The position numbers and the translations under genes were made by a program. The notes under the pieces were generated by a model that saw nothing but the letters and a program-made list of their open reading frames with translations, was not told where the DNA came from and did not search any database. Below, in pieces: positions 643 through 25,067 of a DNA stretch of 64,000 nucleotides. The DNA is from Arenicellales bacterium (lineage in GTDB: Bacteria; Pseudomonadota; Gammaproteobacteria; Arenicellales; Poriferihabitantaceae), in the NCBI GenBank assembly GCA_965231865.1, contig CBDDOJ010000002.1:493837-557836 (forward strand), in the 5' to 3' direction. Within the stretch, counting starts at the first letter, position 1, and every line of letters starts with the position of its first letter.

Positions 643-729
643 ATGGTAAACGAAGCGGTAATCAAGGTGGGGTTCGCTTATATCGGGGCCCTGACATTAT
701 TGGCGGTCATAATGACCATTGTACATTAG
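643..729 (+). CDS. possible 28-aa hydrophobic peptide upstream of the DUF1127 gene
   Basis: It is an internal ATG of ORF 529..729, preceded by GAGAGGAA. The product MVNEAVIKVGFAYIGALTLLAVIMTIVH has one TM-like helix and ends 9 nt before the next gene. There is no homology evidence. Confidence 0.25.
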   Translation: MVNEAVIKVGFAYIGALTLLAVIMTIVH

Positions 730-738
730 GAAATTATC

Positions 739-1020
739 ATGAGCACAACGAGCATTTTCAGTAACCGCGGCAATGTGGTACAGGGCCGTTTTCAGCGCAG
801 TATTTTGGTTCGGCTGGTTGACCGGATCAGAACCTGGAACGACGACAGGGTTGCAATTCGTCAATTGAACGCTCTGTCAGACCGGCTGTTGCAGGATATT
901 GGGATTGAGCGCGAAAATATCGCTGAAGCCGTCCGACAACTGCATCCGAACACCGGGGTTGTCATTGCCCGGGACCCCCGCGAAGCGGGAATACAAGAAG
1001 ACCTCCGCAAGGCCGCGTAA
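739..1020 (+). CDS. DUF1127 domain protein
   Basis: 93 aa. The segment RTWNDDRVAIRQLNALSDRLLQDIGIERENI matches the W-x-R..L..L.D..L.DIG..R signature of DUF1127. Confidence 0.75.
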   Translation: MSTTSIFSNRGNVVQGRFQRSILVRLVDRIRTWNDDRVAIRQLNALSDRLLQDIGIERENIAEAVRQLHPNTGVVIARDPREAGIQEDLRKAA

Positions 1021-1051
1021 CCAGTTTTTCTCCATAGGTGTTTGTCTATTT

Positions 1052-1083
1052 GGGCGCTCTTTCTTTTGAGCGCCCTTTTTTTT
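1052..1083 (+). terminator. rho-independent terminator after the DUF1127 gene
   Basis: GGGCGCTC / GAGCGCCC stem (1052-1059 / 1068-1075) followed by an 8-T run. Confidence 0.6.
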
Positions 1084-1086
1084 GGT

Positions 1087-1201
1087 GCGCCAGACATGGC
1101 GCGTAGCGCCGTGACTGGCGCTGTTCCGGTACACGTGGTGGTGTAATCCAGTACTCGGGATTACACCACTTGAACTGAGCCGCGGAACGCAGCTCAGTTC
1201 A
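1087..1201. repeat. array of four consecutive perfect-stem hairpins
   Basis: The stems are GCGCCA..TGGCGC (1087-1102), AGCGCC..GGCGCT (1105-1122), a 12-bp stem GTGGTGTAATCC/GGATTACACCAC (1138-1169) and a 10-bp stem TGAACTGAGC/GCTCAGTTCA (1171-1201). Confidence 0.6.
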
Positions 1202-1235
1202 ATACAACATTAAAATACACATATTACTTCATAAT

Positions 1236-1265
1236 TTACGATATATTTGCAAATAATGGTATAAT
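1236..1265 (+). promoter_or_regulatory. candidate sigma70 promoter of the ATPase/RloB pair
   Basis: TTACGA, then 18 nt, then TATAAT in an AT-rich stretch. A GAGGAA RBS sits about 10 nt before the ATG at 1300. Confidence 0.3.
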
Positions 1266-1299
1266 TCTGCAGTTCAAATGACTTATGAGGAATTAGCAA

Positions 1300-2580
1300 A
1301 TGCTATTACGCTTTGCTGTAACCAATCATCTTTCCATTCGTGAGAGCCAGGAATTGTCATTCGCTGCCTCGTCATTGCAAGATCGACGAGATGGACTAAT
1401 TGATTGCAAAGCCGTATCAAGCAAGTCTGTTTTGCCTGCGATCGTAATTTATGGTGCAAATGCATCGGGAAAATCCAATATCTTGAACGCAATAGCAACA
1501 ATGAAGAAATTGGTGCTCTGGTCTCATACCAAGGGTGAGCCTGGAGGTGGTATACCCCGCAATGCGTTCAAGCTTGATCCGGCCTGTTTACCCGCTCCAT
1601 CTAAATTTGAAATCGACTTTATCATCGATGATGTGAGACACCATTATGGTTTTGAAGCAACTGACGAGGTTTTTACAGGCGAATGGCTATATACCTATCC
1701 GTTGTCGCAACCCAGAAAGCTGTTTGAGCGCAACAAAAGTACATTCAGTTTTGGGCGCGAGTTAAAAGGACAAAACCAAAATATCGCTGGATTGACCAGA
1801 CCTAATAGCCTGTTTTTATCAGCGGCTGCACAGAATGGTCATGAGCAGTTATTAAAAGTTTACAAGTATTTCAAGTCGATTGAGATTGCCAACTCGATTT
1901 CTATATCGGGGGCAAATGCATCTGCGCGAGTTGTCCGAGATGAATTAGATTCACGAGTGATTGAATTTTTGACTTCTATTGATACGGGGGTTACTGGATA
2001 CCGAGAAAAGAAAATTGAAATTCCTGAAGAAGCTCAAGTAATTCGTAAAGAGTTAAAAGCTGTATTCGAAAAACTCTCCGATGGCACCATAAGCATCAAA
2101 CCGGAGGAAGAGGAAGGCAAGTATATTGCTATTGAACTTGCACACAGTAATCGTAAAGGTGAGCCAGTTTATTTTGATTTAGATTCAGAAAGCGCAGGGA
2201 CACGACGATTATTAATCGTACTTAGCTTAGTATTCCAGGCGCTGGATGAGGGGCTTCCACTCTGTATTGATGAAATCGATGCCAGTTTGCACACCATAGC
2301 GAGTGAGGCAGTATTAAAGTTATTCTGCTTACCGGAAATAAATAGAAAAGGAGCGCAGTTGATTGCGACAACTCACGATACCAACTTGATGAGTTCTAAA
2401 ATGCTGAGACGCGACCAGCTTTGGTTTACTGAAAAGACATCAGAGGGAGCTACAGAGCTTTATCCTCTAACAGAGATTCGAACACGCAAGGGTGACGATA
2501 TCGAATCAGGGTATTTACAGGGCCGATTTGGTGCGCTGCCAAACGGTGACACGATTTCGGCATTCTATGAGCCAGCTTAA
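1300..2580 (+). CDS. AAA_21/ABC-type ATPase, AbiLi-like defence ATPase
   Basis: 426 aa. Walker A is GANASGKSN, the signature-like motif is ESAGTRRLL, Walker B is LCIDEIDASLH, and TTHDTNLM is also present. Its TAA stop abuts the ATG of the RloB gene. Confidence 0.85.
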   Translation: MLLRFAVTNHLSIRESQELSFAASSLQDRRDGLIDCKAVSSKSVLPAIVIYGANASGKSNILNAIATMKKLVLWSHTKGEPGGGIPRNAFKLDPACLPAPSKFEIDFIIDDVRHHYGFEATDEVFTGEWLYTYPLSQPRKLFERNKSTFSFGRELKGQNQNIAGLTRPNSLFLSAAAQNGHEQLLKVYKYFKSIEIANSISISGANASARVVRDELDSRVIEFLTSIDTGVTGYREKKIEIPEEAQVIRKELKAVFEKLSDGTISIKPEEEEGKYIAIELAHSNRKGEPVYFDLDSESAGTRRLLIVLSLVFQALDEGLPLCIDEIDASLHTIASEAVLKLFCLPEINRKGAQLIATTHDTNLMSSKMLRRDQLWFTEKTSEGATELYPLTEIRTRKGDDIESGYLQGRFGALPNGDTISAFYEPA

Positions 2581-3246
2581 ATGGCGCGACGCAAGATACC
2601 TCCGATGCGGCGGCATAAAACGCAAAGAGAACCAAAAAGACGATTCATCCTTTTTTGCGAAGGCCGGAACACAGAACCGGCATATTTTTCTGCGCTTAAA
2701 CGAGTTTGGACTGGGGCATTGATTTCTGTTGAATCCAAGCCGGGAGTTGGAGTTCCCATGACTATAGCAAGGGAGGCTGTAAAATTTGCAAAATCCGAGG
2801 GATTGACCAAATCCAGTCGGCGCAAAAAGTCTTCATTCGAAAGAAAGGATGAGGTGTGGGCAGTTTTTGACCGGGATACTCACCCAAATTTCGACGCAGC
2901 AGTAAAGTTTTGTCTGGACAATAGTGTCGGGGTAGCACGTTCTAACCCATGCTTTGAACTCTGGCTGATTTTACATGAAAGAGATTGCGACAGACCCGAC
3001 AGTAGCGACGCTATACAAAGAACGTTGAAGGAACTGAGACCAGAATATGACAGACATATAGGAAAGATACCAGATTGCGACGAAATGGTTATCCGGGTTG
3101 AGTCTGCAGAAAGACGTGGAAATGTCTTGGTTGATCGTCGTAGAGAAGAAGGTAATCCGTATGGCAATCCTTCGACAACTGTAGGTATGCTGACTAAAGC
3201 AATACGGTTAGCAAACGAATTGTCACGTAGGAAGTTGTCCGAGTAA
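2581..3246 (+). CDS. RloB-like (TOPRIM-like) protein, AbiLii-like
   Basis: 221 aa. FILFCEGRNTEPAYF, VWAVFDRD and ARSNPCFELWLILH are the RloB family hallmarks. Confidence 0.85.
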   Translation: MARRKIPPMRRHKTQREPKRRFILFCEGRNTEPAYFSALKRVWTGALISVESKPGVGVPMTIAREAVKFAKSEGLTKSSRRKKSSFERKDEVWAVFDRDTHPNFDAAVKFCLDNSVGVARSNPCFELWLILHERDCDRPDSSDAIQRTLKELRPEYDRHIGKIPDCDEMVIRVESAERRGNVLVDRRREEGNPYGNPSTTVGMLTKAIRLANELSRRKLSE

Positions 3247-3358
3247 GAGGGGGTGTCGCCACGCCACGCGCCTGTGGTCGGCACCGTCGCGGCACATCCT
3301 GTGATACAACCCTTTTTGCCTCGAATCCGTGTCACGTCACACGCACACCCCAAGGTGG

Positions 3359-3389
3359 AACTGCCCGCTCTAGTGGGCAGTTTGTTTTT
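3359..3389 (+). terminator. rho-independent terminator after the RloB gene
   Basis: AACTGCCC / GGGCAGTT stem followed by TGTTTTT. Confidence 0.6.
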
Positions 3390-3453
3390 GAGCTCCGCGC
3401 TGCGCTGCACTTTGTCCCGTGGCGCCGGAACAGGTCACTGCGGCACATAAGTA

Positions 3454-4629
3454 TTACAGATCGTCATGTTCTGGGTCCCACTCGGGCGTCATGGCATGGA
3501 TCGCTTCCTTGGCACCAAAAATCCCATTGTCCCCATTTCCATAGATGGGATAACCGCTACGCAACCTGCAAACGTTGAGATAAGCGTACGGATACAGGGT
3601 TTCTGGCCAATTAGCGCCTTTACGGATATAGACTCCATAGCGAAGCCCGTCGGTGACGATGAGCCTTTTGCAGTTCCCGTAGTCTTTGGCATAGTTCTTC
3701 GCTTGCTCAAACGCGCCCAAACAGGCTTGGTGCAGGGCCTTCGCCTCCACGACGAGGGTCAGATTCTCCTTGTTATCTCTCGGCAGGCGAGAAAACAGGG
3801 CTACATCGATCCGGTTGTGTTCGATTGCAATCTTTTGCGGGGTCCAACCAAGAACCTTGAGAAGGGGTACGACGAGGTGACACACGATTTCGTGCTCGGA
3901 AGCCCCCCGCGTCCGGTACCAATTGGCCAATTGTACGAAGGAACCCTTCGGGTCGAGCAGTTCCCGGATTGGGTCGCCTGGCAGGCCCTTTTCGAATAGA
4001 TAGATTGCGAGTTCGTCCTTCGCGAGTTCGAACGAACTGCCGTTATTATCCCGAAAATCCAGCGGTTCCATATCCCTCCAGTTTCCGTCGTCGTCGATTC
4101 CTCTCAGCGTCTCGCGAATCCAGGCCAGTGCCGGTTCTTTGTACAGTCTTGCATTCGTATGACGCGCAAAGACATTGGTTTCGAAGTCTTTGCCCTCGCA
4201 GGGCAACCACCGTACGCGTCTAGCATGGCCCAGCTTCCAGCCGTCAACATCGTTGAATTCGTCAATGTGTTCATAGTTTCCGACCACTCCTATTGCATGT
4301 AAGCGGGAGAGCCCCATCTTGAGGACCACGATATCTCCTGGGCGCATCTCCTCGCACAGCCTTCGAACCCTCCCTTTTTCTTCGCGCTTCTCGGCATCGG
4401 TGTATTTAGACCACCGCGTCGTTCCGGGTCCTACAATGATGACGTTCCACCGCTTGCACAGGCCTACATGGTTATGACTCTGATCGCCAGCGGTATGTTG
4501 CCAGATCGTTTTCCCGTCTATGTTCATAGGACACAGTTTCTCACCGTCTGAGGTTGGTGCGTTGCACTGGCTATGCGAAAGGGAGTCGGCATTGAGACGA
4601 TCAGGCTCCTCCCAGAATCGTCCGGCCAA
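3454..4629 (-). CDS. two-domain nuclease candidate: N-terminal beta-rich reader-like domain + C-terminal PD-(D/E)xK (HSDR_N-like) domain
   Basis: The C-terminal part EHEIVCHLVVPLLKVLGW..RIDVALF..LTLVVEAKAL..QAKNYA fits the type I R-subunit N-terminal nuclease fold (D..EAK). The N-terminal part GDIVVLKMG..LHAIGVVGNYEH..GHARRVRW is PUA/EVE-like only by loose pattern. The start is uncertain: TTG at 4629 or ATG at 4527. Confidence 0.6.
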   Translation of the reverse strand: MAGRFWEEPDRLNADSLSHSQCNAPTSDGEKLCPMNIDGKTIWQHTAGDQSHNHVGLCKRWNVIIVGPGTTRWSKYTDAEKREEKGRVRRLCEEMRPGDIVVLKMGLSRLHAIGVVGNYEHIDEFNDVDGWKLGHARRVRWLPCEGKDFETNVFARHTNARLYKEPALAWIRETLRGIDDDGNWRDMEPLDFRDNNGSSFELAKDELAIYLFEKGLPGDPIRELLDPKGSFVQLANWYRTRGASEHEIVCHLVVPLLKVLGWTPQKIAIEHNRIDVALFSRLPRDNKENLTLVVEAKALHQACLGAFEQAKNYAKDYGNCKRLIVTDGLRYGVYIRKGANWPETLYPYAYLNVCRLRSGYPIYGNGDNGIFGAKEAIHAMTPEWDPEHDDL

Positions 4630-4695
4630 AAATGCACATTGTCATGGCTGTTAGAATCCTCCATTATATACCTACATACCGAAGGATATCCCTTG

Positions 4696-5109
4696 ATGTT
4701 GTGGATTAAATCAATACACATAATTGCCATGGTCGCCTGGTTCGCGGGGTTGTTTTATCTGCCCAGGCTCTTTGTTTATCATGCCCAGACGACCAATGGA
4801 CCGAGTATCGAGCTTTTCAAGACCATGGAGCGAAGACTGTTTTTCGGCATCATGACCCCGGCTGCAGTCCTGACCCTCGTATTTGGAGTCTGGCTTTGGG
4901 TTGGCTATGGGTTTACCGGCATCTGGTTAACCTTGAAACTGGGACTCGTGGCGCTGGTGGTCCTCCATCATATCTGGTGTTACCGAGCATTGACGGCTTT
5001 CCAAAACAATGCAAACACCAAAACGCATGTTTACTATCGATGGATGAATGAGTTGCCGGTTTTGCTTCTCATCGGCATCGTCCTGCTGGTCGTGTTCAAA
5101 CCCGGTTGA
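4696..5109 (+). CDS. hemJ: protoporphyrinogen IX oxidase HemJ (UPF0093/CopD-like membrane protein)
   Basis: It is an internal ATG of ORF 4573..5109. The product begins [29 protein letters not shown] and has 4 TM helices. Confidence 0.8.
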
Positions 5110-5113
5110 TGCC

Positions 5114-5578
5114 ATGTTCCGGATTGCGCTGTTCGAGCCGGAGATTCCGCCGAATACGGGAAATATCATCCGGTTGTGCGCAAACACGGGTTGCGTCCTG
5201 CACCTGATCGGCCGATTGGGATTTGACATGGATGAAAAGCAGCTGCGCCGGGCCGGTTTGGACTATCACCAGTACGCCCGGGTGAAAACCTGGGTGGACT
5301 GGGATTCATTCAGGCGGAAGCATCCGGCTCGTATCGTTTCATTTTCCACCCGGAATCATCGGTGTTACAGCGATTTCCGGTTCTCGGCGGGAGACATCCT
5401 GCTGTTCGGTTCAGAGACCCGCGGACTGCCCGGATGGCTCGGTGAGCAGGTCGAGGAAGAAAACAGGCTGACCATCCCCATGGAGGAAAATAGCCGGAGT
5501 CTGAATCTGTCGAACAGCGTTGCCATCGCGGTGTATGAGGCCTGGCGCCAAAATGGCTTCCGCAACAGGTCGCTTTAG
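5114..5578 (+). CDS. trmL: tRNA (cytidine/uridine34-2'-O)-methyltransferase TrmL
   Basis: SPOUT motifs are present: [37 protein letters not shown] and [18 protein letters not shown]. Confidence 0.9.
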
Positions 5579-6600
5579 TGGGTTTCGGCTTTTGGACCTC
5601 TTGACAGCAGGGATTTGACCGCACTGGCCGGGTCCGTGTTTTCAAAAATGATTTTGTAGGTCTGTTCCGTGATGGGCATGTCAATGCCATGTTTCCGACC
5701 CGCTGAATACAGTTCCCGGGTGGTCAATATTCCCTCGATTTCCTGGGCGATGTCATCAATCACCTGTTGTCTTGCCCTGCCCTGCCCCAGACCCAGGCCA
5801 AATCTCCGGTTGCGGGACTGATCATCTGTGCACGTCAGTATCAAATCGCCCACACCCGTCAGGCCGGCAAAGGTTTCCGGTTTGCCTCCCAGGGCCAGTC
5901 CCAGCCGTGTCAGTTCCGAAAGGCCCCGGGTGATGAGCGCAGCCCGGGCATTGACGCCATAGCCCAGTCCGTCACTGATCCCCGCTGCGATTGCCATGAC
6001 ATTCTTGATGGCGCCTCCAAGCTGGACGCCGATCAGGTCGTCGCTGTAGTAAACCCGGGTGGTGGGCGTACGAAACCAGTTGGCCATCATTTCGGCATCG
6101 GCTGAGCGGTCACTCGCAACCGTGAGCGCCGTTGGCAGGTTCATGGCGGTCTCCCGTGCAAAGCTTGGCCCTGAAATGACCCCTGTCCGGGCTTCCTGCC
6201 CGAGCACATCGTTCGCAACCTTGCTGAGCAATTCCCCGGTGGTACAGTCGAATCCCTTGGTCCCCCAGATGACCGTGGCTTGTTCCAGCGACCGGCTCTG
6301 GGAGCGAATCTGGGATTTCAGTGCTTCAAGAGTACTTCTGAAACCATGGCTGGGGGTGGCAATGACGAAACAATGCGTTTCATGGATGGCGCGGGCAAAT
6401 TCCACTTCAATCTCCAGGTTGTCCGGCAATCGGACGCCGGGGAGATAACGCTCATTACACCGATTTTTTCGTGCCCTGGACAATTCCTCTGCATTTCGGC
6501 CCCAAAGCACCACACGCTCGATATTGTTGGACAGCAACAGGGACAGGGCGGTACCCCAGGACCCTGCGCCCAGTACAGAAACAGTGCGAAGGGGCATCAT
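5575..6600 (-). CDS. gpsA: NAD(P)H-dependent glycerol-3-phosphate dehydrogenase
   Basis: 341 aa, with [15 protein letters not shown] Rossmann motif and [20 protein letters not shown]. Confidence 0.95.
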
Positions 6601-6752
6601 CGGGTCTCGTTCAAAAGAGGATTGGTTTGGACAAACCGGGGCGCCGTCAGTTTCGGGGATAAAATCGGCACCAATGGGTCATGCTATGGTGCTCGTATTT
6701 TCCACCAAACCGAACCGGGCGAACTGCATACGGTCCCTTCATGTTCAACCTC

Positions 6753-7680
6753 TTAAGGAGTTGTTGGTGTGGGTCGAGGGGATATTTTGATAAATGCTCG
6801 ACCATCATGGTTTTCAACAATTTTTACGGCACTTGTTCCAGGAATATGTGACGTAGAGTGAAAAACAGGAATCAAGTCTTGAAACTGTTGGTCGGTTTCT
6901 AGCCTCGAGTTCGCGGTCTTCAGCTTCTGTTCTAGGGATGTGTCTATTATGGCTGTTGAAATTTTCATGACCAGCAAGCCAATCAGAAATATCTTCTGCT
7001 TTATCTGGACCAGTATCACTGTTTTTGAACATGTAAGATGTAAGCCATGTCTTGACCAATTCCCTCGTCATCGCTAGTGCAGATTCGCACTGCACTAGCA
7101 GGGCAGGTCCATATTGCTCAAGCATTGGTAACCAAGCGGCTAGCTTTGCTGGGTCTGCGCACTCCTGCTGTGCCTGATCAAATTGGTCAAGGACCGCCTG
7201 TGCTGGCACAGCCCGTATTCCTAATGATGTAGGAATCAGAATCTGTGGATCAGTTGGGCCTAGGGATGAATGCTCGCCGAGTACGATTTGGTTTGCAGCA
7301 CATGCAATCATTGTTGCAGCTAACATGGCGAGCTGTGGCACAATTACTCGAATATCAGAAAAACGAGATCTCAAATACGAGACAATTGCCTCTGCTGCCT
7401 CTGGAGAACCTCCAGGACTATGGATAATCAAATCAAGACTTTCACCCTCCAACGTATAGCAAACTTCCATAAAGGCCTGCATATCCTCATCATTGATAGA
7501 AATCATGGAAGGAGGGGCATCATCCCTTTGTAACCAGCCTGAAGCGTAAAGAATCACATTGCGCTCAGTATGCCGATGAAGTTCGACTAGGTACTTCCTG
7601 CGAACACTGTCAAAGTCCCACGGTTGCCCTTGTTTTTCTGTGGCAGTTAGTTCTTTCAGATTCTCACTCCAACCTGGCAT
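6753..7680 (-). pseudogene. SDH-family (ClpP/SppA-fold) serine protease gene, apparently frameshifted
   Basis: The 288-aa ORF carries LDLIIHSPGGSPEAAEAIV and SLGPTDPQ. The family-like C-terminus (LETDQQFQDLIPVFHSTSH..AVKIVENHDG) continues in another frame (ORF 6753..7019), so there is a shift near 6895-6915. The expected AMSAGT nucleophile reads AMLAAT, with a TTA codon at 7321-7323. Confidence 0.55.
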
Positions 7681-7705
7681 TTCTAGAATCCGATATTTTC
7701 TAAAT

Positions 7706-7906
7706 TCAAGAAATACTTGAGGAGTTTGTTGTCGTGATTATTGCAGGTTTTTGAATAACAGAGCGGTAGGATTTGAAGTTTTGGTTCTTCTCGTTCCAAT
7801 TACAGTAGACTTGCATGGCTTCGTGTACACCTGGGCGAGAAAGCGCCTCCTTTAGAATCTCAGCATGTGCTTGTTCCCGGTTCGAGTGCTTGGTTGGTGT
7901 AGGCAT
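7706..7906 (-). CDS. hypothetical 66-aa protein upstream of the SDH-family gene
   Basis: It is an AT-rich ORF on the same strand, 25 nt upstream of the protease gene. No family was recognised. Confidence 0.35.
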   Translation of the reverse strand: MPTPTKHSNREQAHAEILKEALSRPGVHEAMQVYCNWNEKNQNFKSYRSVIQKPAIITTTNSSSIS

Positions 7907-8156
7907 TTAAAATAATTCTCGTATTTTCGGTATATTATTTTACCACAGAGTGATTACCAAATCTTAATATTACGAGTTGATGGGAGAGAAAGATCAACCA
8001 TCACCTCCACCCCGAGTCATGGTTGTCATCCGTGACCGCACGTTCCGTCGACCCCTGACTGGTACACCATCAGACGGATATTGACCGGTAAAAGCTGTGA
8101 AGCTTGACCCGTATCTTCAGCAGTGAACGGCATTTCGCCAGGGTGCCTAAGGGCAG

Positions 8157-19928: not shown

Positions 19929-21715
19929 GTGTCTGGCATGAAAACCCCTTGATTTTGCGCGACCGGAGGAGTGAAAGCAATTTTGCAGGGTCCCTCCGGC
20001 GAATTGCGGAGGAGATTTTCGCTCAATGCCGCTTATTTTCGGCGGTTTGAGGCACGATTTGGCGGAATTTTACGCTCCAGGTCATAGGAGACCCTCCCCG
20101 TCGGTGCGGGGGCAGATCTGACCGGGTGAATAGGGCGTCAGGCAGCCAGGCGGTGTCTGTCACGATGCGTTTTCTCCGATTTCTGCAACATCCGGCCGAG
20201 TTGGTGCAGGTTGGCAGCAACGATGGCCAGCCCGACGGTTCTCTCGAACCCGTCGGCTCCTTTCGCCCGGACTCTGTCAAGTCCGTGATGCTCCAGGTGA
20301 TTGATTGCTGACTCCACGGCGGGGTGCTGTTTCCGTGCCCGGGAAAAGTTTTCTTCGGACTCCCGTTCCTGGTCCGCGGCATTCAGTCGGCCCTTTTTCG
20401 GCAAGGCCACCATGTCAAGCAGATTCTCCAGACGCCTGCGATTCTCCGGGCTGTGAAAGCCCCGGTCAAAGCTGCACTCCTGCAGGTCCGGGTGCATCTC
20501 CTGGCAGGACTCAATCAGGGGAACCGCTACATCCACATCCCCGCCTTGCCACATGATCTGATAATCCAGCACAAACTGGTGCTGGTCCTCGACAATGGCC
20601 AGGGGAACTCCGAGTTCCACCGGACGCCCCGCCTTGCCTTTCGATATCCACCGGGTATGCTCCTCGAATACCGAAAAGATTTTCTCGGAATGCTCAATCA
20701 CTTCGCCCTGCAACACCCGGCGGTCGATCTGGTCGGTGAATAGGTGGATATGCTTCAGATAATGGCGGATCTTCTCCATCCAGGCGGTGGATGCCCCGGC
20801 TTCCTTCAGGGCAACCAGAGATAACTCCGCTTTCCCGGCCATCTTCCGGCAGATCTTCAGATACTCCGACACCTGATCCGGTCGCTTCGTCCAAAGCCGG
20901 GCTGTGGCGACTCGATTGAACCGCTTGCGCACCTGTTTGGTCAGGTGCCGGTGCTGCCGCCAGCCTTTCACATCATGCAATTCACAAGCCTTGCCGGTTT
21001 CGCGGATCAGGCAACGAGTGGAATCCAATAGGAGGTTGAAATCAGTCGGGTAGTGGACGTCCGTCTCCACCACGAAACTATCACATCGCCCGGCCAACGT
21101 TTCTCCAGGCTTTTTTTTTGCGACCGTATGCCCCGTGGAAACCACCAGTCGGTTGACCTCACGCAGCAGTTCCGGAGTCAGCAGGGCCACATTGTCCACG
21201 ATCCGGGCCCGGACGTAGTAGGTATTGTCGATGCCGTCCATACCATGACCCAACATCTTGCGTATCGTTCGGTGCTCGTTGGCCAGATCATGCAGACGGT
21301 CGAAATCGCAGTTCAGTCCTTCCTTGAGAATGCCCAATACCAGAATCCGCCACATCTCCATTCCCGGACGCCCAACGGTGCGGTCGGTATCCGGTCGGAT
21401 ATGGGCTTCGAGCAACTCGAACAGCTCCTTGCGGGTATCCGGGTCGGTATAGATCAGTTGAAGGCCCTTCAACAGGGCCGGAATGTCGTCCCGGGACTTT
21501 TCGTCGAGGGCGATCTGTTCAATCGGGACGGAACCCAGAGGGGATTGGAGATCGATGACCGTTCTCATGCTGTACAATGCCTCGAAGATTTGCCGTAAAT
21601 GGCGGTTTCAGGGGGTTTTCCCTTCGGATTGTACTATATTCGCGAAATCTTCGCCACAAAAAAACGGGTAGTTATTCAAATAAATCAATCGTTTATGGGG
21701 TTTTCTGACAAGCAC
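19929..21715 (-). mobile_element. intact insertion sequence (~1.8 kb) with imperfect terminal inverted repeats and a 6-bp target duplication
   Basis: The ends are GTGTCTGGCATGAAAACCCC (19929-) and GGGGTTTTCTGACAAGCAC (-21715). TAATTC is present on both flanks (19923-19928 and 21716-21721). There is a single transposase ORF. Confidence 0.8.
20138..21577 (-). CDS. DDE transposase (IS4/IS5/ISNCY-like)
   Basis: 479 aa, with DSFVVETDVHYPTD, FDRGFHSPEN and HPAVESAINHLEHHGLDR. The exact IS family was not determined. Confidence 0.8.
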   Translation of the reverse strand: MYSMRTVIDLQSPLGSVPIEQIALDEKSRDDIPALLKGLQLIYTDPDTRKELFELLEAHIRPDTDRTVGRPGMEMWRILVLGILKEGLNCDFDRLHDLANEHRTIRKMLGHGMDGIDNTYYVRARIVDNVALLTPELLREVNRLVVSTGHTVAKKKPGETLAGRCDSFVVETDVHYPTDFNLLLDSTRCLIRETGKACELHDVKGWRQHRHLTKQVRKRFNRVATARLWTKRPDQVSEYLKICRKMAGKAELSLVALKEAGASTAWMEKIRHYLKHIHLFTDQIDRRVLQGEVIEHSEKIFSVFEEHTRWISKGKAGRPVELGVPLAIVEDQHQFVLDYQIMWQGGDVDVAVPLIESCQEMHPDLQECSFDRGFHSPENRRRLENLLDMVALPKKGRLNAADQERESEENFSRARKQHPAVESAINHLEHHGLDRVRAKGADGFERTVGLAIVAANLHQLGRMLQKSEKTHRDRHRLAA

Positions 21716-21721
21716 TAATTC

Positions 21722-21759
21722 AGTGACTTGCCGGTACTGCCGGAACCAACCCCTTCCCG
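21722..21759. repeat. direct repeat copy 2, right part (beyond the IS)
   Basis: AGTGACTTGCCGGTACTGCCGGAACCAACCCCTTCCCG is identical to 17524-17561. Confidence 0.85.
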
Positions 21760-22120
21760 ATCTCTCGTTCGTCGGCGTACCGATGAGGGAATCCCAGGCG
21801 GTACCGGGGCTGGGAATCACCGCAACTTCGCACAACCCGGTGGTGCCGGCAGCCGGGCGGTGGAGGATGAACAGGCTGATTGCATGGAAGATCACGAAGC
21901 GGGTGCATTCCGGCAGGGCAGATTCCCGGTTCGGGACGGATTGTTCCGGGTCCAAGGGACATTCTGGTCGTGATTGGGGCCCCGGCCTTTTTTGGTGCAG
22001 AAATGGGCGGTTGCGGAGGCGGTGACAGTGCGCCCTTTCAGGGCGTACCACTGTTTTGCGCTGACACGCAACAGGATTCATTTTTGACATCGTATATGAT
22101 GTGATCCACTATTCAGTGTT

Positions 22121-22545
22121 GTGCATAGATTCGTTTTGGATGCTGACGTTGTCGTGGTGGTCATGCGTAGCCCAATTGGGACATCTGCGGCTTTATTGGG
22201 AAAAGTGCTGGATCAATGGGTCACGATGCTGACCAGCGTGCCGCTGTTTTTTGAATATGAAGCGCAGTGTACCTCCCCTTCATTGGACCGCTGCAGGATT
22301 AACGCAAGAGCAGGCGAGTGTATTTTTGAGTGGCTTGGCGGCGTTGATCACACCGGTGAAAATGCATTATTCATGGCGTCCATCGCTGCGGGACCCCAAT
22401 GACGAAATGGTGTTGGAAACGGCCGTCAATGGACGTGCTGATCATGATCGTTACCTTCAATTTGCGGGACTATGGTAGGGTGCCAGACCGTTTCAATATC
22501 GAGGTTCTGAGACCGGGTACCGCGATCAGGAGAGTAAGAAAATGA
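22121..22545 (+). pseudogene. PIN-domain toxin gene with at least two frameshifts
   Basis: Three frames together give RFVLDADVVVVVMRSPIGTSAALL..SVPLFFEYEA / GLTQEQASVFLSGLAALITPV..WRPSLRDPNDEMVLETAVNGRAD / IVTFNLRDYGRVPDRFNIEVLRPG. The shifts lie near 22262-22275 and at GATCATGATC (22440-22449). Confidence 0.7.
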
Positions 22546-22796
22546 GTGAGAAGTCCACCTATCCATTAAGGTTGCCCAAATCGCTTAAAGATGAAGTAGC
22601 CAAAGTGGCCAAACGAGACGGGACAAGTATGAATCAGTTTATCGCCATTGCGGTGGCTGAAAAAATCTCTGCGTTGGAAACCGGGCAATTTTTTGCTGAA
22701 CGCGCCAAAGGCTCGGATCTTGAAGCCTTCAGGGCGATTCTGTTTCGTCCCGGTGGTGAACTCCCCCGCTCTGGGGATGAAGTAGTCGATCAATAA
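22542..22796 (+). CDS. ribbon-helix-helix (CopG/Arc-like) antitoxin
   Basis: 84 aa with YPLRLPKSLKDEVAKVAKRDGTSMNQFIAIAVAEKIS. Its ATG overlaps the stop of the PIN reading frame (ATGA). Confidence 0.75.
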   Translation: MSEKSTYPLRLPKSLKDEVAKVAKRDGTSMNQFIAIAVAEKISALETGQFFAERAKGSDLEAFRAILFRPGGELPRSGDEVVDQ

Positions 22797-22812
22797 CCCT
22801 GAATCTGGAAGG

Positions 22813-23157
22813 ATGAACACCGCCGCCATTAAAATCCGGATGACGCCTTCCCACCCGGGGGAGTTCGTTCGGCTTGAAATCATTGAAGCCCTGAATCTGA
22901 CCATTTCGGCGGCCGCAGAGATTCTTGGTGTACGCCGGGCAACACTCTCAGCCTTGCTGAATGGCAAGGCTGCCCTATCACCCGAAATGGCGTTGCGTCT
23001 TGAAAAGGCTTTCGATATCCATATGGATCTGTTGATGCGGATGCAGGCCTGGCATGACGTTGCACGCATGCGTCGCCTGGCGGATAAAATTGCTACGGAT
23101 GTACGTCGATATGAAAGCCGAACTGGTGTATCAGGAAATGGTGGACGAATACGATGA
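22813..23157 (+). CDS. higA: HigA-family XRE antitoxin-like protein
   Basis: The segment HPGEFVRLEIIEALNLTISAAAEILGVRRATLSALLNGKAALSPEMALRLEKAF is the HigA signature. No higB is adjacent. Confidence 0.8.
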   Translation: MNTAAIKIRMTPSHPGEFVRLEIIEALNLTISAAAEILGVRRATLSALLNGKAALSPEMALRLEKAFDIHMDLLMRMQAWHDVARMRRLADKIATDVRRYESRTGVSGNGGRIR

Positions 23158-24014
23158 CCGACAATCGCGATTTTCCTGCCCACGCCACATTCTCGCAACG
23201 CTATGGATACGAACCATTACCAGAGCCAATGCGGCTTGAGGAAATTTCGGATGATTTGAGGCGCGAAATTTGGAACGGTGTTTATTCTTACATCAGCTCT
23301 TTAGATCTATATGGAGTTACAGAAAAACGCATACAAGTTGCATTGGGAAGATATCACAGTAAGCCGGAGAGTCAAATTAACACTAACTACATCCCGGTAG
23401 AGGGGGATATGGAAAACACCATTCTGTATCACGACTTCAATAAGGTTTTGGACTTTCTTGAAATTGTAATTGAAGAAAAGGTTATTCCTAAGTACCTCCG
23501 ATTGGAAATTGGGAGATTATTTGAAAAGCATGGAGCCGCTTATCGGCTGGATTTTTCAAGTACTCCCTATCGATTCGTTCCAAGTGCAAGCAAAGAACAG
23601 AGTGAATCAACACAACATGCTCTCCAAACGCTCCATGAAGGTAACATGGATGGAGCCACAACACATTTGCGTCAAGCGGCGGAACATATCAACGCATGCC
23701 AGTATGCTGATGCGATCACCGATTGCATTCTTGCGGTCGAGTCCGTGGCCCGGATAATCGACCCCCAATCCAGTGCTACGTTGGGACCGGCACTACATTC
23801 CCTTGAACAGACCGGCGTGCTGAATCATCCAGTGCTCAAGCAGGCGTTCCTTAAACTATACGGCTATACCAACGACGAACAGGGTCTGCGCCATGCTCTT
23901 CTTGATCAGGATGCCGCCGGTGTCGGTCTGTCCGAGGCTGTGTTCATGTTCGGGGCCTGCGCGTCCTTCGCTGCTTACCTGGTGCAGAAGCACCAGCAGG
24001 CTGGAGGGACATGA
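23154..24014 (+). CDS. AbiJ-like protein (AbiJ-NTD-like N-terminus, Abi_C/HEPN-like C-terminus)
   Basis: 286 aa. The N-terminus FSQRYGYEPLPEPMRLEEISDDLRREIWN and the C-terminal LKLYGYTNDEQGLRHALLD resemble AbiJ-type abortive-infection proteins, from memory of the family. Its ATG overlaps the higA stop (ATGA). Confidence 0.55.
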   Translation: MTDNRDFPAHATFSQRYGYEPLPEPMRLEEISDDLRREIWNGVYSYISSLDLYGVTEKRIQVALGRYHSKPESQINTNYIPVEGDMENTILYHDFNKVLDFLEIVIEEKVIPKYLRLEIGRLFEKHGAAYRLDFSSTPYRFVPSASKEQSESTQHALQTLHEGNMDGATTHLRQAAEHINACQYADAITDCILAVESVARIIDPQSSATLGPALHSLEQTGVLNHPVLKQAFLKLYGYTNDEQGLRHALLDQDAAGVGLSEAVFMFGACASFAAYLVQKHQQAGGT

Positions 24015-24179
24015 ACACAGCTTGTGTTCATGTAGGTTAGCCGTTCGGGTTGCAACCTTCTCGTTTTGCCCTTTCTCCCGGTTTACCGCTCGGGTAAACC
24101 CCTTCCATTATATCGACTGTAGTTTTATGCCGATATCGGCATAACCAATAGGAGCCTGTTTTTAAAAGGACCCTTCGGG

Positions 24180-24403
24180 AGTGGGTCATTGGGCGTAAGC
24201 TCAGCTTCGGTTCCCAAGTGTCCAAGGGTTGAATTCAAGGCGACGATGCACACGGTATTGGGAACGTGCGGGCCTGGCTGGTGGACACTCAGGCCCAGCT
24301 GCTGGGCTCCCTAGGACTGGCGCAGTCGCCTGTCCACAATGTTCCGGATGATCGATACCCGATCCAGCTCTCGATTGCTCAATATAACGGTCTCTTTTGT
24401 CAT
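24180..24403 (-). pseudogene. remnant of an IS transposase N-terminal HTH region
   Basis: A GAGGAGG RBS precedes an ATG at 24403. The product reads MTKETVILSNRELDRVSIIRNIVDRRLRQS, then a stop, then ..AQQLGLSV.. and decays. This resembles the HTH leader of rve/ISNCY-type transposases. Confidence 0.4.
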
Positions 24404-24419
24404 GGGTCCTCCTCAATGA

Positions 24420-24456
24420 AAAAGAGGACATTTTAATATTGCTAAAAGAGGACATT
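24420..24456. repeat. two 13-bp direct repeats, AAAAGAGGACATT
   Basis: They lie at 24420-24432 and 24444-24456, just upstream of the transposase remnant. Confidence 0.6.
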
Positions 24457-24552
24457 ACTACTTTGCGTTAACACAATCCCCTGATTCGGCTTGAATTGTT
24501 GCGCCAAACAGGTTAGATTCCGCAACCCTTTGGTGGTCATTGAATTAAAACC

Positions 24553-24687
24553 ATGAAACGTACCTTTCAACCGAGCGGAGTGAAACGAAAACGAACCCAC
24601 GGATTCCGTGCGCGCATGCGTACTCGAGGTGGACGGGCCATCATCAATGCCCGTCGAGCCAAGGGACGGACCCGCCTGAGCGCGTAG
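24553..24687 (+). CDS. rpmH: 50S ribosomal protein L34
   Basis: It is below the ORF-track length cutoff. Hand translation gives [44 protein letters not shown]. Confidence 0.95.
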
Positions 24688-24701
24688 ACAGGAGTGATTC
24701 C

Positions 24702-25067
24702 ATGCCGCAAGCCGCGGCAAAGCTGGGGCGAAATCGCAAATTGCTGGATGGTGGACAGTTCAAGTCGGTTTTCAGCCAGAAAAAATCCATACATGGCAAG
24801 TATTTTGGTATGCATGTGATCCGCAATCGCCTGAACCACCCGAGACTGGGGATGGCGGTATCGAAAAAAGTCAGCAAAAAAGCAGTACAGCGCAATCGGA
24901 TAAAACGTCAAATCCGGGAATCGTTCCGGTTGTGCCAGGACACCCTGGTTCCCATGGACTGTGTGGTGGTTTCGAAAATCGGGTGCGCCGACCAGGAAAA
25001 CCGGGTGCTGAGGACCGAACTGGATGGTTTGTGGTCGAGAGCGAATAAGAAATGCGAAAATTTTTAA
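24702..25067 (+). CDS. rnpA: ribonuclease P protein component
   Basis: 121 aa with [29 protein letters not shown], immediately after rpmH. Confidence 0.9.

Follow-up and report, generated by a model that had tools for sequence, protein, structure and literature searches.

The locus analysed here lies in a 64-kb window (the whole stretch of DNA under analysis, 64,000 nucleotides of contig CBDDOJ010000002.1 from an Arenicellales bacterium) and comprises higA, encoding a 114-aa antitoxin-type protein (22813-23157, plus strand), and, directly following it, a gene for a 286-aa protein (23154-24014, plus strand); both are present as open reading frames (ORFs). A sequence-only reading of this DNA had proposed that the two genes are a non-canonical pair forming a system of their own, with the HigA-like protein guarding a putative HEPN RNase. 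If that proposal were true, the catalogue of toxin-antitoxin (TA) and abortive-infection systems would gain a new antitoxin-HEPN toxin pairing. The features of the locus, with the evidence for each, are as follows.

22121-22478, plus strand: PIN_3 toxin gene, decayed; two ORFs in different frames match the N- and C-terminal parts of PF13470
22542-22796, plus strand: ribbon-helix-helix (RHH; Arc/YlcI-like) antitoxin-type gene, 84 aa; Arc PF03869, 24.4 bits against a cut-off of 20.4
22813-23157, plus strand: orphan higA, an XRE-type helix-turn-helix (HTH) antitoxin/repressor of 114 aa; TIGR02607 and HigA/VapI structures in the PDB
23154-23157, plus strand: ATGA stop/start overlap of higA and the 286-aa gene, read from the sequence
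23154-24014, plus strand: 286-aa AbiJ-NTD4/PDC-S32 gene, a single-gene candidate abortive-infection effector; PF18863 and PDC-S32 models
23187-23549, plus strand: AbiJ_NTD4 domain, residues 12-132, low GC; Pfam match
23580-24011, plus strand: C-terminal helical domain, residues 143-286, HEPN-like four-helix fold; AlphaFold (AF2) model and Foldseek
23739-23753, plus strand: E196-S-V-A-R200, an E-x3-[KR] motif whose helix corresponds to HEPN helix 2; alignments and model
23883-23894, plus strand: G244-L-R246-H247, a G-x-R-H dyad within the loop that follows the third core helix; alignments
23935-24022, plus strand: long-range 17-bp stem around the last 25 codons and the stop codon; inverted repeat and RNA fold
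24553-24687, plus strand: rpmH (L34), first gene of the rpmH-rnpA-yidD-yidC-mnmE housekeeping operon; translation of 44 aa

The HigA signature claimed for the 114-aa protein was confirmed: it matches TIGR02607, 'HigA family addiction module antitoxin', with 81.9 bits at a cut-off of 47.7, and HTH_3 with 47 bits, and its nearest solved structures are HigA/VapI antitoxins. The ATGA overlap with the downstream gene is likewise present, and the sequence-only reading was also right that no RelE/HigB-type gene stands beside higA. The slot upstream, where HigB would be expected, is taken by the RHH gene, which ends 16 nt before the higA start codon. In tblastn searches with two HigB proteins encoded at loci that also harbour close homologues of the window HigA, no credible match was found in the 64-kb window and no HigB remnant between the RHH gene and higA. 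The HigA homologues are typically 101-103 aa long and end in ..VRRYEPA. The closest non-syntenic ones (74-80% identity) are encoded directly after a HigB-like toxin (PF05015) at the loci L084, L086 and L087, and others are orphans (L083, L085, L088 and L089). Because its closest non-syntenic homologues follow HigB, the window higA appears to be the surviving antitoxin/repressor half of an ordinary higBA module from which higB has been lost. It is a bona fide member of the HigA family, as in HigBA modules; however, no HigB/RelE-type toxin gene adjoins it in the window, the protein carries an additional C-terminal tail of 11-13 residues, which extends to the ATG of the 286-aa gene, and the latter follows higA, whereas in HigBA modules the toxin gene precedes that of the antitoxin.

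The downstream gene is, as had been stated, more AT-rich than its surroundings, with a GC content of 48.4% against 53.0% in higA and 54.9% in the window, and the deviation resides mostly in its 5' half (41.8% in the first 142 codons). The AbiJ-like N-terminus of its product was substantiated by a match of residues 12-132 to AbiJ_NTD4 (PF18863; 55.8 bits, cut-off 34), a family matched by all 49 of the 49 aligned relatives. The motifs quoted in the earlier reading, FSQRYGYEPLPEP, LRREIWN and LYGYTNDEQGLRHALLD, all occur in the protein, at positions that rank with the best conserved in the family. Two PADLOC models of the PDC-S32 candidate match the protein over its full length (171.3 and 146.1 bits, residues 11-281). 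We found 1481 homologues, and the distant relatives are named 'AbiJ-NTD4 domain-containing protein' in RefSeq. A profile search with the C-terminal domain yielded 4112 clusters at 50% identity; among the 150 of these that were listed, all were of one architecture and none provided a bridge to the canonical AbiJ/Abi_C proteins.

The window protein resembles the PDC-S32 family in its length (about 290 aa), two-domain build, invariant motifs and full-length match to the hidden Markov models, and no structural difference is apparent. Members of the family are either solitary or embedded in defence systems, whereas the window copy follows an orphan higA and lies outside any defence system. PADLOC candidates of the PDC type were defined as genes embedded in defence systems (preprint 10.1101/2024.01.29.577857), and the single-gene label given by PADLOC fits both this origin and the many solitary relatives. 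A literature search returned neither PDC-S32 by name nor an experimental test of it, and AbiJ_NTD4 was found in one plasmidome survey only. Judged by its sequence, the 286-aa gene is a solitary copy of this catalogued AbiJ-NTD4/PDC-S32 family, with a role as an anti-phage gene that is only a candidate function. Full-length relatives are also encoded by phages: gene 17 of Curtobacterium phage Barebow (L176:2441-3358) and a gene of Rhizobium phage RHEph01 (L175:100-951) share 27-31% identity with the window protein and keep the G-x-R-H motif. In one of these two phages the gene adjoins the integrase gene, a typical moron position.

The claim of an Abi_C/HEPN-like end was supported in part by the modelled fold and failed for the profile. 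Pfam Abi_C (PF14355) gave no match at E<=1 for the 286-aa protein and the 49 relatives, nor at E<=10 for 7 more distant members; an Abi_C/HEPN assignment by sequence profile is thereby not supported for the members searched. A profile search of the PDB sequences with the C-terminal domain returned noise only, and the NCBIfam model STM4504/CBY_0614 matches residues 150-203 only (E 6e-4). The AF2 models are of good quality (pLDDT 83 for the full length; pLDDT 85 and pTM 0.83 for the domain alone). When the domain alone was compared with the PDB by Foldseek, the top five matches were all HEPN proteins with TM-scores of 0.5-0.58, headed by 2hsb (probability 0.98, TM 0.52/0.58) and followed by 1ufb, 1wol, 2q00 and 3o10, all of them with E>=0.35 and none at E<=0.001; the HepT structures 7bxo, 7ae6 and 8xeh were also among the matches. 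With the full-length model nothing was retrieved at E<=0.001, and HEPN matches reached a probability of 0.4-0.6 only.

In described HEPN domains a conserved acidic residue, typically within E-x3-[KR], lies in helix 2, an insert separates helices 2 and 3, and the Rx4-6H motif is placed at the end of helix 3 (PMC3710099). The model of the window protein follows this arrangement: the helix 184-202 carries A-V-E196-x3-R200, residues 203-225 form the insert, and the helix 226-240 leads into the loop with the G-x-R-H motif, at the very site of Rx4-6H in HEPN domains. No alignment shows a change at A194, V195 or E196, even when relatives at 24-31% identity are included, and position 200 is mostly R or K, so that E196 and R200 supply the E-x3-[KR] of HEPN helix 2. 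Equally, G244, R246 and H247 are invariant across the 49 relatives and in the plasmid and phage relatives at 24-31% identity. The canonical Rx4-6H is absent, as the three positions 4-6 residues upstream of H247 are occupied by E/D/N (N/S-D-E) without any R, and the invariant arginine is the adjacent R246. The sequence-only reading had pointed out this RH in place of a spaced R-x4-6-H and had left the catalytic status unclear, a caution which proved apt; deviations comparable to the adjacent R-H have been described for some HEPN families (PMC3710099). The fold model and the positions of the motifs suggest that the C-terminal half is HEPN-like; the Abi_C and PDB sequence-profile searches gave nothing. 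As modelled, it forms a helical bundle of HEPN-like type whose dyad is non-canonical, and an RNase activity is putative. The family-wide conservation of the G-x-R-H/E-x3-R signature down to 24% identity indicates the precise residues to be mutated in PDC-S32.

One of the closest known counterparts is the combination of AbiJ-NTD4 with an AbiJ-type HEPN domain (Anantharaman et al. 2013, PMC3710099; prototype CBY_0614, and AbiJ of Lactococcus). The window protein shares with it an AbiJ_NTD4 domain above the Pfam cut-off, a HEPN-like bundle whose helix 2 has E-x3-[KR] and whose helix 3 has a conserved His at its end, and the same proposed logic of an N-terminal sensor that restrains a C-terminal RNase; it differs in lacking an Abi_C match and in having an adjacent R-H preceded by D/E-x-G instead of Rx4-6H. 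The HEPN-MNT system (HepT-MntA) is similar in its HEPN-fold toxin, HepT being among the fold matches; however, its antitoxin is a nucleotidyltransferase that AMPylates the toxin and not an XRE repressor, its toxin has the canonical Rx4H, and no AbiJ N-terminal domain (NTD) is present.

A pattern scan of one genome per species yielded 79 loci with relatives of the 286-aa gene, nearly all from sponge-associated metagenome-assembled genomes of many phyla. A HigA of the window type directly upstream of the family gene occurs at only one of them, L001, which is the same locus in a sister genome (94-98% nucleotide identity, without the insertion sequence (IS) present in the window). P0001 and P0002, which of all database proteins are closest to the window protein, are likewise encoded at this syntenic locus, with the order pfp-hipBA-...-RHH-HigA-X-rnpA-yidC-mnmE, where X is the family gene. 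Because L001, P0001 and P0002 all share this one syntenic locus, the pairing is best regarded as a single event in one lineage. The proposed survey of HigA-AbiJ co-occurrence thus came out essentially negative: the HigA subtype of the window accompanies the gene at the locus of the sister genomes only.

Of the six copies of the 286-aa gene in this lineage (window, L001, P0001, P0002, P0003 and P0005), four are disrupted. The copies of the window and of P0001 are intact, and that of the window is full length with every family-invariant residue kept; the L001 copy has a premature stop just after RHALLD, the P0002 copy has lost its last helix by a deletion of about 100 nt, and the P0003 and P0005 copies are without the N-terminus. 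The decay is reciprocal: the PIN_3 gene is broken in the window and intact in L001 (141 aa, 72 bits, L001:2967-3392), from which the window differs by indels at 22275 and 22442, while the AbiJ-NTD4 gene is intact in the window and truncated in L001. Another sister locus, L081, has hipA broken into two ORFs. Nor do all sisters keep the ATGA overlap: in L081 a C>T substitution (CGA>TGA) shortens HigA by three codons, so that a gap of 5 nt takes the place of the overlap; the 286-aa gene is intact there.

The 286-aa gene also changes much faster than its neighbours. Between the sister genomes it shows a dN of 0.055-0.12 and a dN/dS of 0.40-0.62, against 0.003-0.012 and 0.02-0.30 in the RHH gene, higA, rnpA and yidC; the RHH gene is 99.6% identical to its L001 copy, and in the same comparison the AbiJ_NTD4 segment has 73-79% identity and higA 98-100%. 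The differences are concentrated at 23300-23500, a low-GC hypervariable stretch of the NTD with 73-79% identity between flanks of 98-100%, which contains a 12-nt indel and whose alleles are mosaic among the sister genomes and public runs. In the latter the organism was present in several samples, as assembled contigs of unknown library type, and these contigs display allelic variation in 23217-23442. The variation at 23300-23500 fits diversifying selection and recombination acting on a sensor domain; relaxed constraint is an alternative.

Outside this lineage the family has a different home. The gene of the nearest non-syntenic relative, P0004 (70% identity), is flanked by those of a 1044-aa N6_N4 methylase and a ResIII protein and overlaps each of them by 4 nt, and the neighbours of the relatives in such mod-X-res operons were identified by PADLOC as MTase_III (652-660 bits) and REase_III (388-480 bits). 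When the flanks and HTH neighbours of the 79 sponge-symbiont loci were assessed by profile searches of all ORFs, both Type III flanks were found at 34, mod only at 3, res only at 8 and neither at 34, which amounts to a Type III methyltransferase and/or restriction endonuclease flank at 45 of the 79. The arrangement is exemplified by L080:1870-7957 and occurs also in L005, L013, L016-L020, L028, L050, L060, L068 and L070 (about 700-8000 in each); the Type III methylase is unusually long (about 1050-1110 aa), Res has about 1030 aa, and 4-nt overlaps on both sides are frequent. Among sponge symbionts of at least eight phyla, the family is housed mainly in the slot between Type III mod and res. 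In a second, more diverse set of 80 metagenome loci (30-54% identity) only 4 have mod and 3 have res, and the plasmid and phage relatives (24-31% identity) stand alone. No recurrent partner was detected among the solitary loci, whose neighbours clustered into 78 singletons. In L080, the opposite strand carries an RVT_1 reverse-transcriptase gene, possibly of a group II intron, that overlaps the 3' end of the Type III res (L080:7941-9425), and the res product of this locus has 695 aa, short in comparison with about 1030 aa elsewhere.

AbiJ-NTD proteins and HEPN-RM combinations were described in 2013 (PMC3710099), and the mod-X-res home of the family is similar to that of the HEPN/anticodon-nuclease genes carried in restriction-modification operons, such as PrrC in the Type Ic system EcoprrI and HEPN-RM (PMC3710099). 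The operons of the family are of Type III, with a Mod of about 1050 aa and a Res of about 1030 aa, and not of Type I. The window copy differs from both, as no Type III mod or res gene is found anywhere in the 64 kb.

We favour, as the probable explanation, that a solitary PDC-S32 gene and an orphan higA were secondarily juxtaposed in one lineage of sponge-symbiotic Poriferihabitaceae and do not form a two-gene system. This explanation builds on direct observations: the family memberships, the gene order, the lineage restriction, the decay seen among the sister genomes, and the settings in which the two families usually occur. The juxtaposition would have taken place in a decaying patch of TA and IS debris upstream of rpmH (hipBA, IS, PIN-RHH, higA and the 286-aa gene). 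The PIN remnant, the RHH gene, higA and the 286-aa gene would most likely be read as one transcript, and translation of the 286-aa protein may start through coupling or with the help of its own Shine-Dalgarno sequence, GGTGGA. In the published model of AbiJ-NTD proteins the NTD keeps the C-terminal HEPN effector in check until infection (PMC3710099). The window protein may similarly be a self-contained sensor-effector, the variable NTD restraining the HEPN-like RNase until infection occurs, with E196-x3-R200 and G-x-R246-H247 as the putative effector site. Such a protein would need no antitoxin, which is what its numerous solitary relatives suggest. HigA would then not be its dedicated antitoxin, and we infer no interaction between the two proteins; at most, HigA would be a DNA-binding repressor whose operon now includes the 286-aa gene. 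The idea that HigA guards the HEPN protein is also at odds with the position of the nearest non-syntenic relative in a mod-X-res operon, with the lack of an HTH neighbour in most members and with the single-gene status of PDC-S32. Both parts of the locus, an orphan HigA and a PDC-S32/AbiJ-NTD4 protein, are of catalogued kinds; they were joined once in one symbiont lineage and are now decaying, and it should not be annotated or counted as a new system.

Several observations weigh against this explanation. They are those on which a functional two-gene module would rest, with HigA recruited as the cognate partner; it could be a protein antitoxin, or else a labile repressor that is lost on infection or stress, which de-represses the effector. 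The ATGA overlap and the tight co-orientation, in the order antitoxin-then-toxin, have the typical look of a type II antitoxin-toxin pair. Moreover, higA is under strong purifying selection in all sister genomes and is conserved at 98.8% while the adjoining 286-aa gene changes. The proximity of HigA-type genes to the family is also not random. A profile built from HigA-type sequences and run on all ORFs of the 79 loci detected 19 HigA-type HTH ORFs in 15 of them, all 19 on the same strand as the family gene, and 13 of these lie within 400 nt of it where 0.8 are expected from the density in the distal flanks (P about 4e-12). The state 'HTH upstream' needs at least seven changes on the protein tree and hence at least seven independent events; even if only seven events are counted, P is about 2e-5. 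In one Terriglobia genome higB-higA is followed after 9 nt by the family gene in an otherwise housekeeping context, and in L004, L040 and L069 an XRE-HTH/M78 peptidase fusion, a predicted antitoxin-type regulator, is encoded directly upstream.

Nevertheless, we consider a functional two-gene module unlikely. The conserved co-occurrence that characterises a type II TA pair is not observed for HigA and the 286-aa gene: the window HigA subtype is paired with it at one syntenic locus only, the gene is disrupted in most copies there, and in L081 the overlap is lost while the gene itself remains intact. The closest HigA relatives have ordinary HigB partners, and the AbiJ-NTD4 family is catalogued as a single-gene one. 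Any HigA-type HTH within 400 nt was found at 12 of the 79 genome loci and, in the metagenome set, in one independent case among the 61 loci with enough upstream sequence. A HigA-type neighbour is lacking at about 85% of the genome loci and at about 98% of the metagenome loci. Where such genes are present, they lie from -4 to 328 nt upstream or from 8 to 400 nt downstream, with or without HigB, and belong to several unrelated HigA subtypes. Complete higBA cassettes precede the family gene in L029, L063, L067 and L073 (9-nt gap), HigA-only genes follow it by 8-59 nt in L057 and L074, and in L061 a higBA cassette separates it from res. The earlier proposal of a distinct HigA-HEPN system is not supported for this locus.

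Because the position of the HTH gene, the presence of HigB and the HigA subtype all vary, the adjacency may be read as that of cassettes sharing a cargo slot or a defence-island neighbourhood in TA-rich sponge symbionts, and not as a fixed system. Inside the Type III operons, higBA or lone HigA-type genes were noted before or after the AbiJ-NTD4 gene at L061:6255-7159, L063:3232-3879, L074:4927-5265 and L004:5268-5600. This points to a cargo slot, lying between mod and res, in which defence genes as well as TA modules accumulate. The occurrence of HigA-type cassettes near the family more often than by chance may offer a lead on how TA modules and defence genes assemble into islands. Since this adjacency in sponge symbionts is non-random, a looser link, by which the family gene may draw some regulatory benefit from its HTH neighbour, is kept in consideration. 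A stronger form of the same idea, which may be termed 'TA-gated Abi', supposes that HigA-type regulators (higBA, orphan higA and HTH-M78 fusions) have been recruited repeatedly for a reason, with at least seven origins in sponge symbionts. Labile autoregulating repressors would tie the expression of a pre-assembled HEPN-like effector, restrained by its NTD, to the same signals of proteolytic or translational stress by which TA modules are fired, and the window would be a minimal example in which higB is lost and the effector kept. We regard this possibility as rather doubtful.

That the whole cluster is non-functional debris, with higA and the 286-aa gene as relics in a reduced symbiont genome and the window copy merely not yet hit, would agree with the truncated or frameshifted state of four of the six lineage copies, the raised dN/dS of the gene in comparison with its neighbours, the frameshifted PIN gene (intact in L001), the split hipA of L081 and the IS within the same patch, but it is quite improbable given that the window copy is full length with all family-invariant residues, that its dN/dS is below 1, that the changes concentrate in a segment hypervariable across the family, where mosaic alleles also fit diversifying selection and recombination on a sensor domain, and that strong purifying selection acts on higA as well as on the RHH gene.

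With regard to the surroundings of a juxtaposition of this kind, the co-oriented cluster begins with the decayed PIN_3 gene, which can be read across two frames only, and the gaps between the RHH gene, higA and the 286-aa gene do not exceed 16 nt. The match of the RHH protein to NCBIfam YlcI/YnfO_N is weak. An IS transposase gene and hipBA lie upstream of the PIN-RHH-higA-286-aa run, and the housekeeping operon from rpmH on marks the boundary of the TA/IS patch. A promoter/terminator scan of 21600-24750 revealed promoter-like sites at a frequency not above the shuffled expectation and none on the plus strand before the genes. An Rfam scan of 21600-24800 gave no match.

The 17-bp stem at the 3' end of the 286-aa gene includes a 13-nt perfect inverted repeat (23937-23949 / 24009-24021), and the RNA of this region folds with -61.8 kcal/mol (z = -3.7). 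A further direct copy of GTGTTCATGT is found at 24025-24034, beyond the stem, and the 3' arm of the stem is degenerate in L081. The sequence GCTGTGTTCATGT, which codes for the conserved A-V-F-M motif, recurs twice: immediately behind the stop codon as a perfect inverted copy, and 10 nt further as a direct one. In L082 about 100 nt are gone at the stem region, which destroys the last helix of the protein. At the other end of the gene, a 10-bp perfect palindrome, AATCGCGATT, is located at 23160-23175, 9 nt past the start codon, and may be coincidental.

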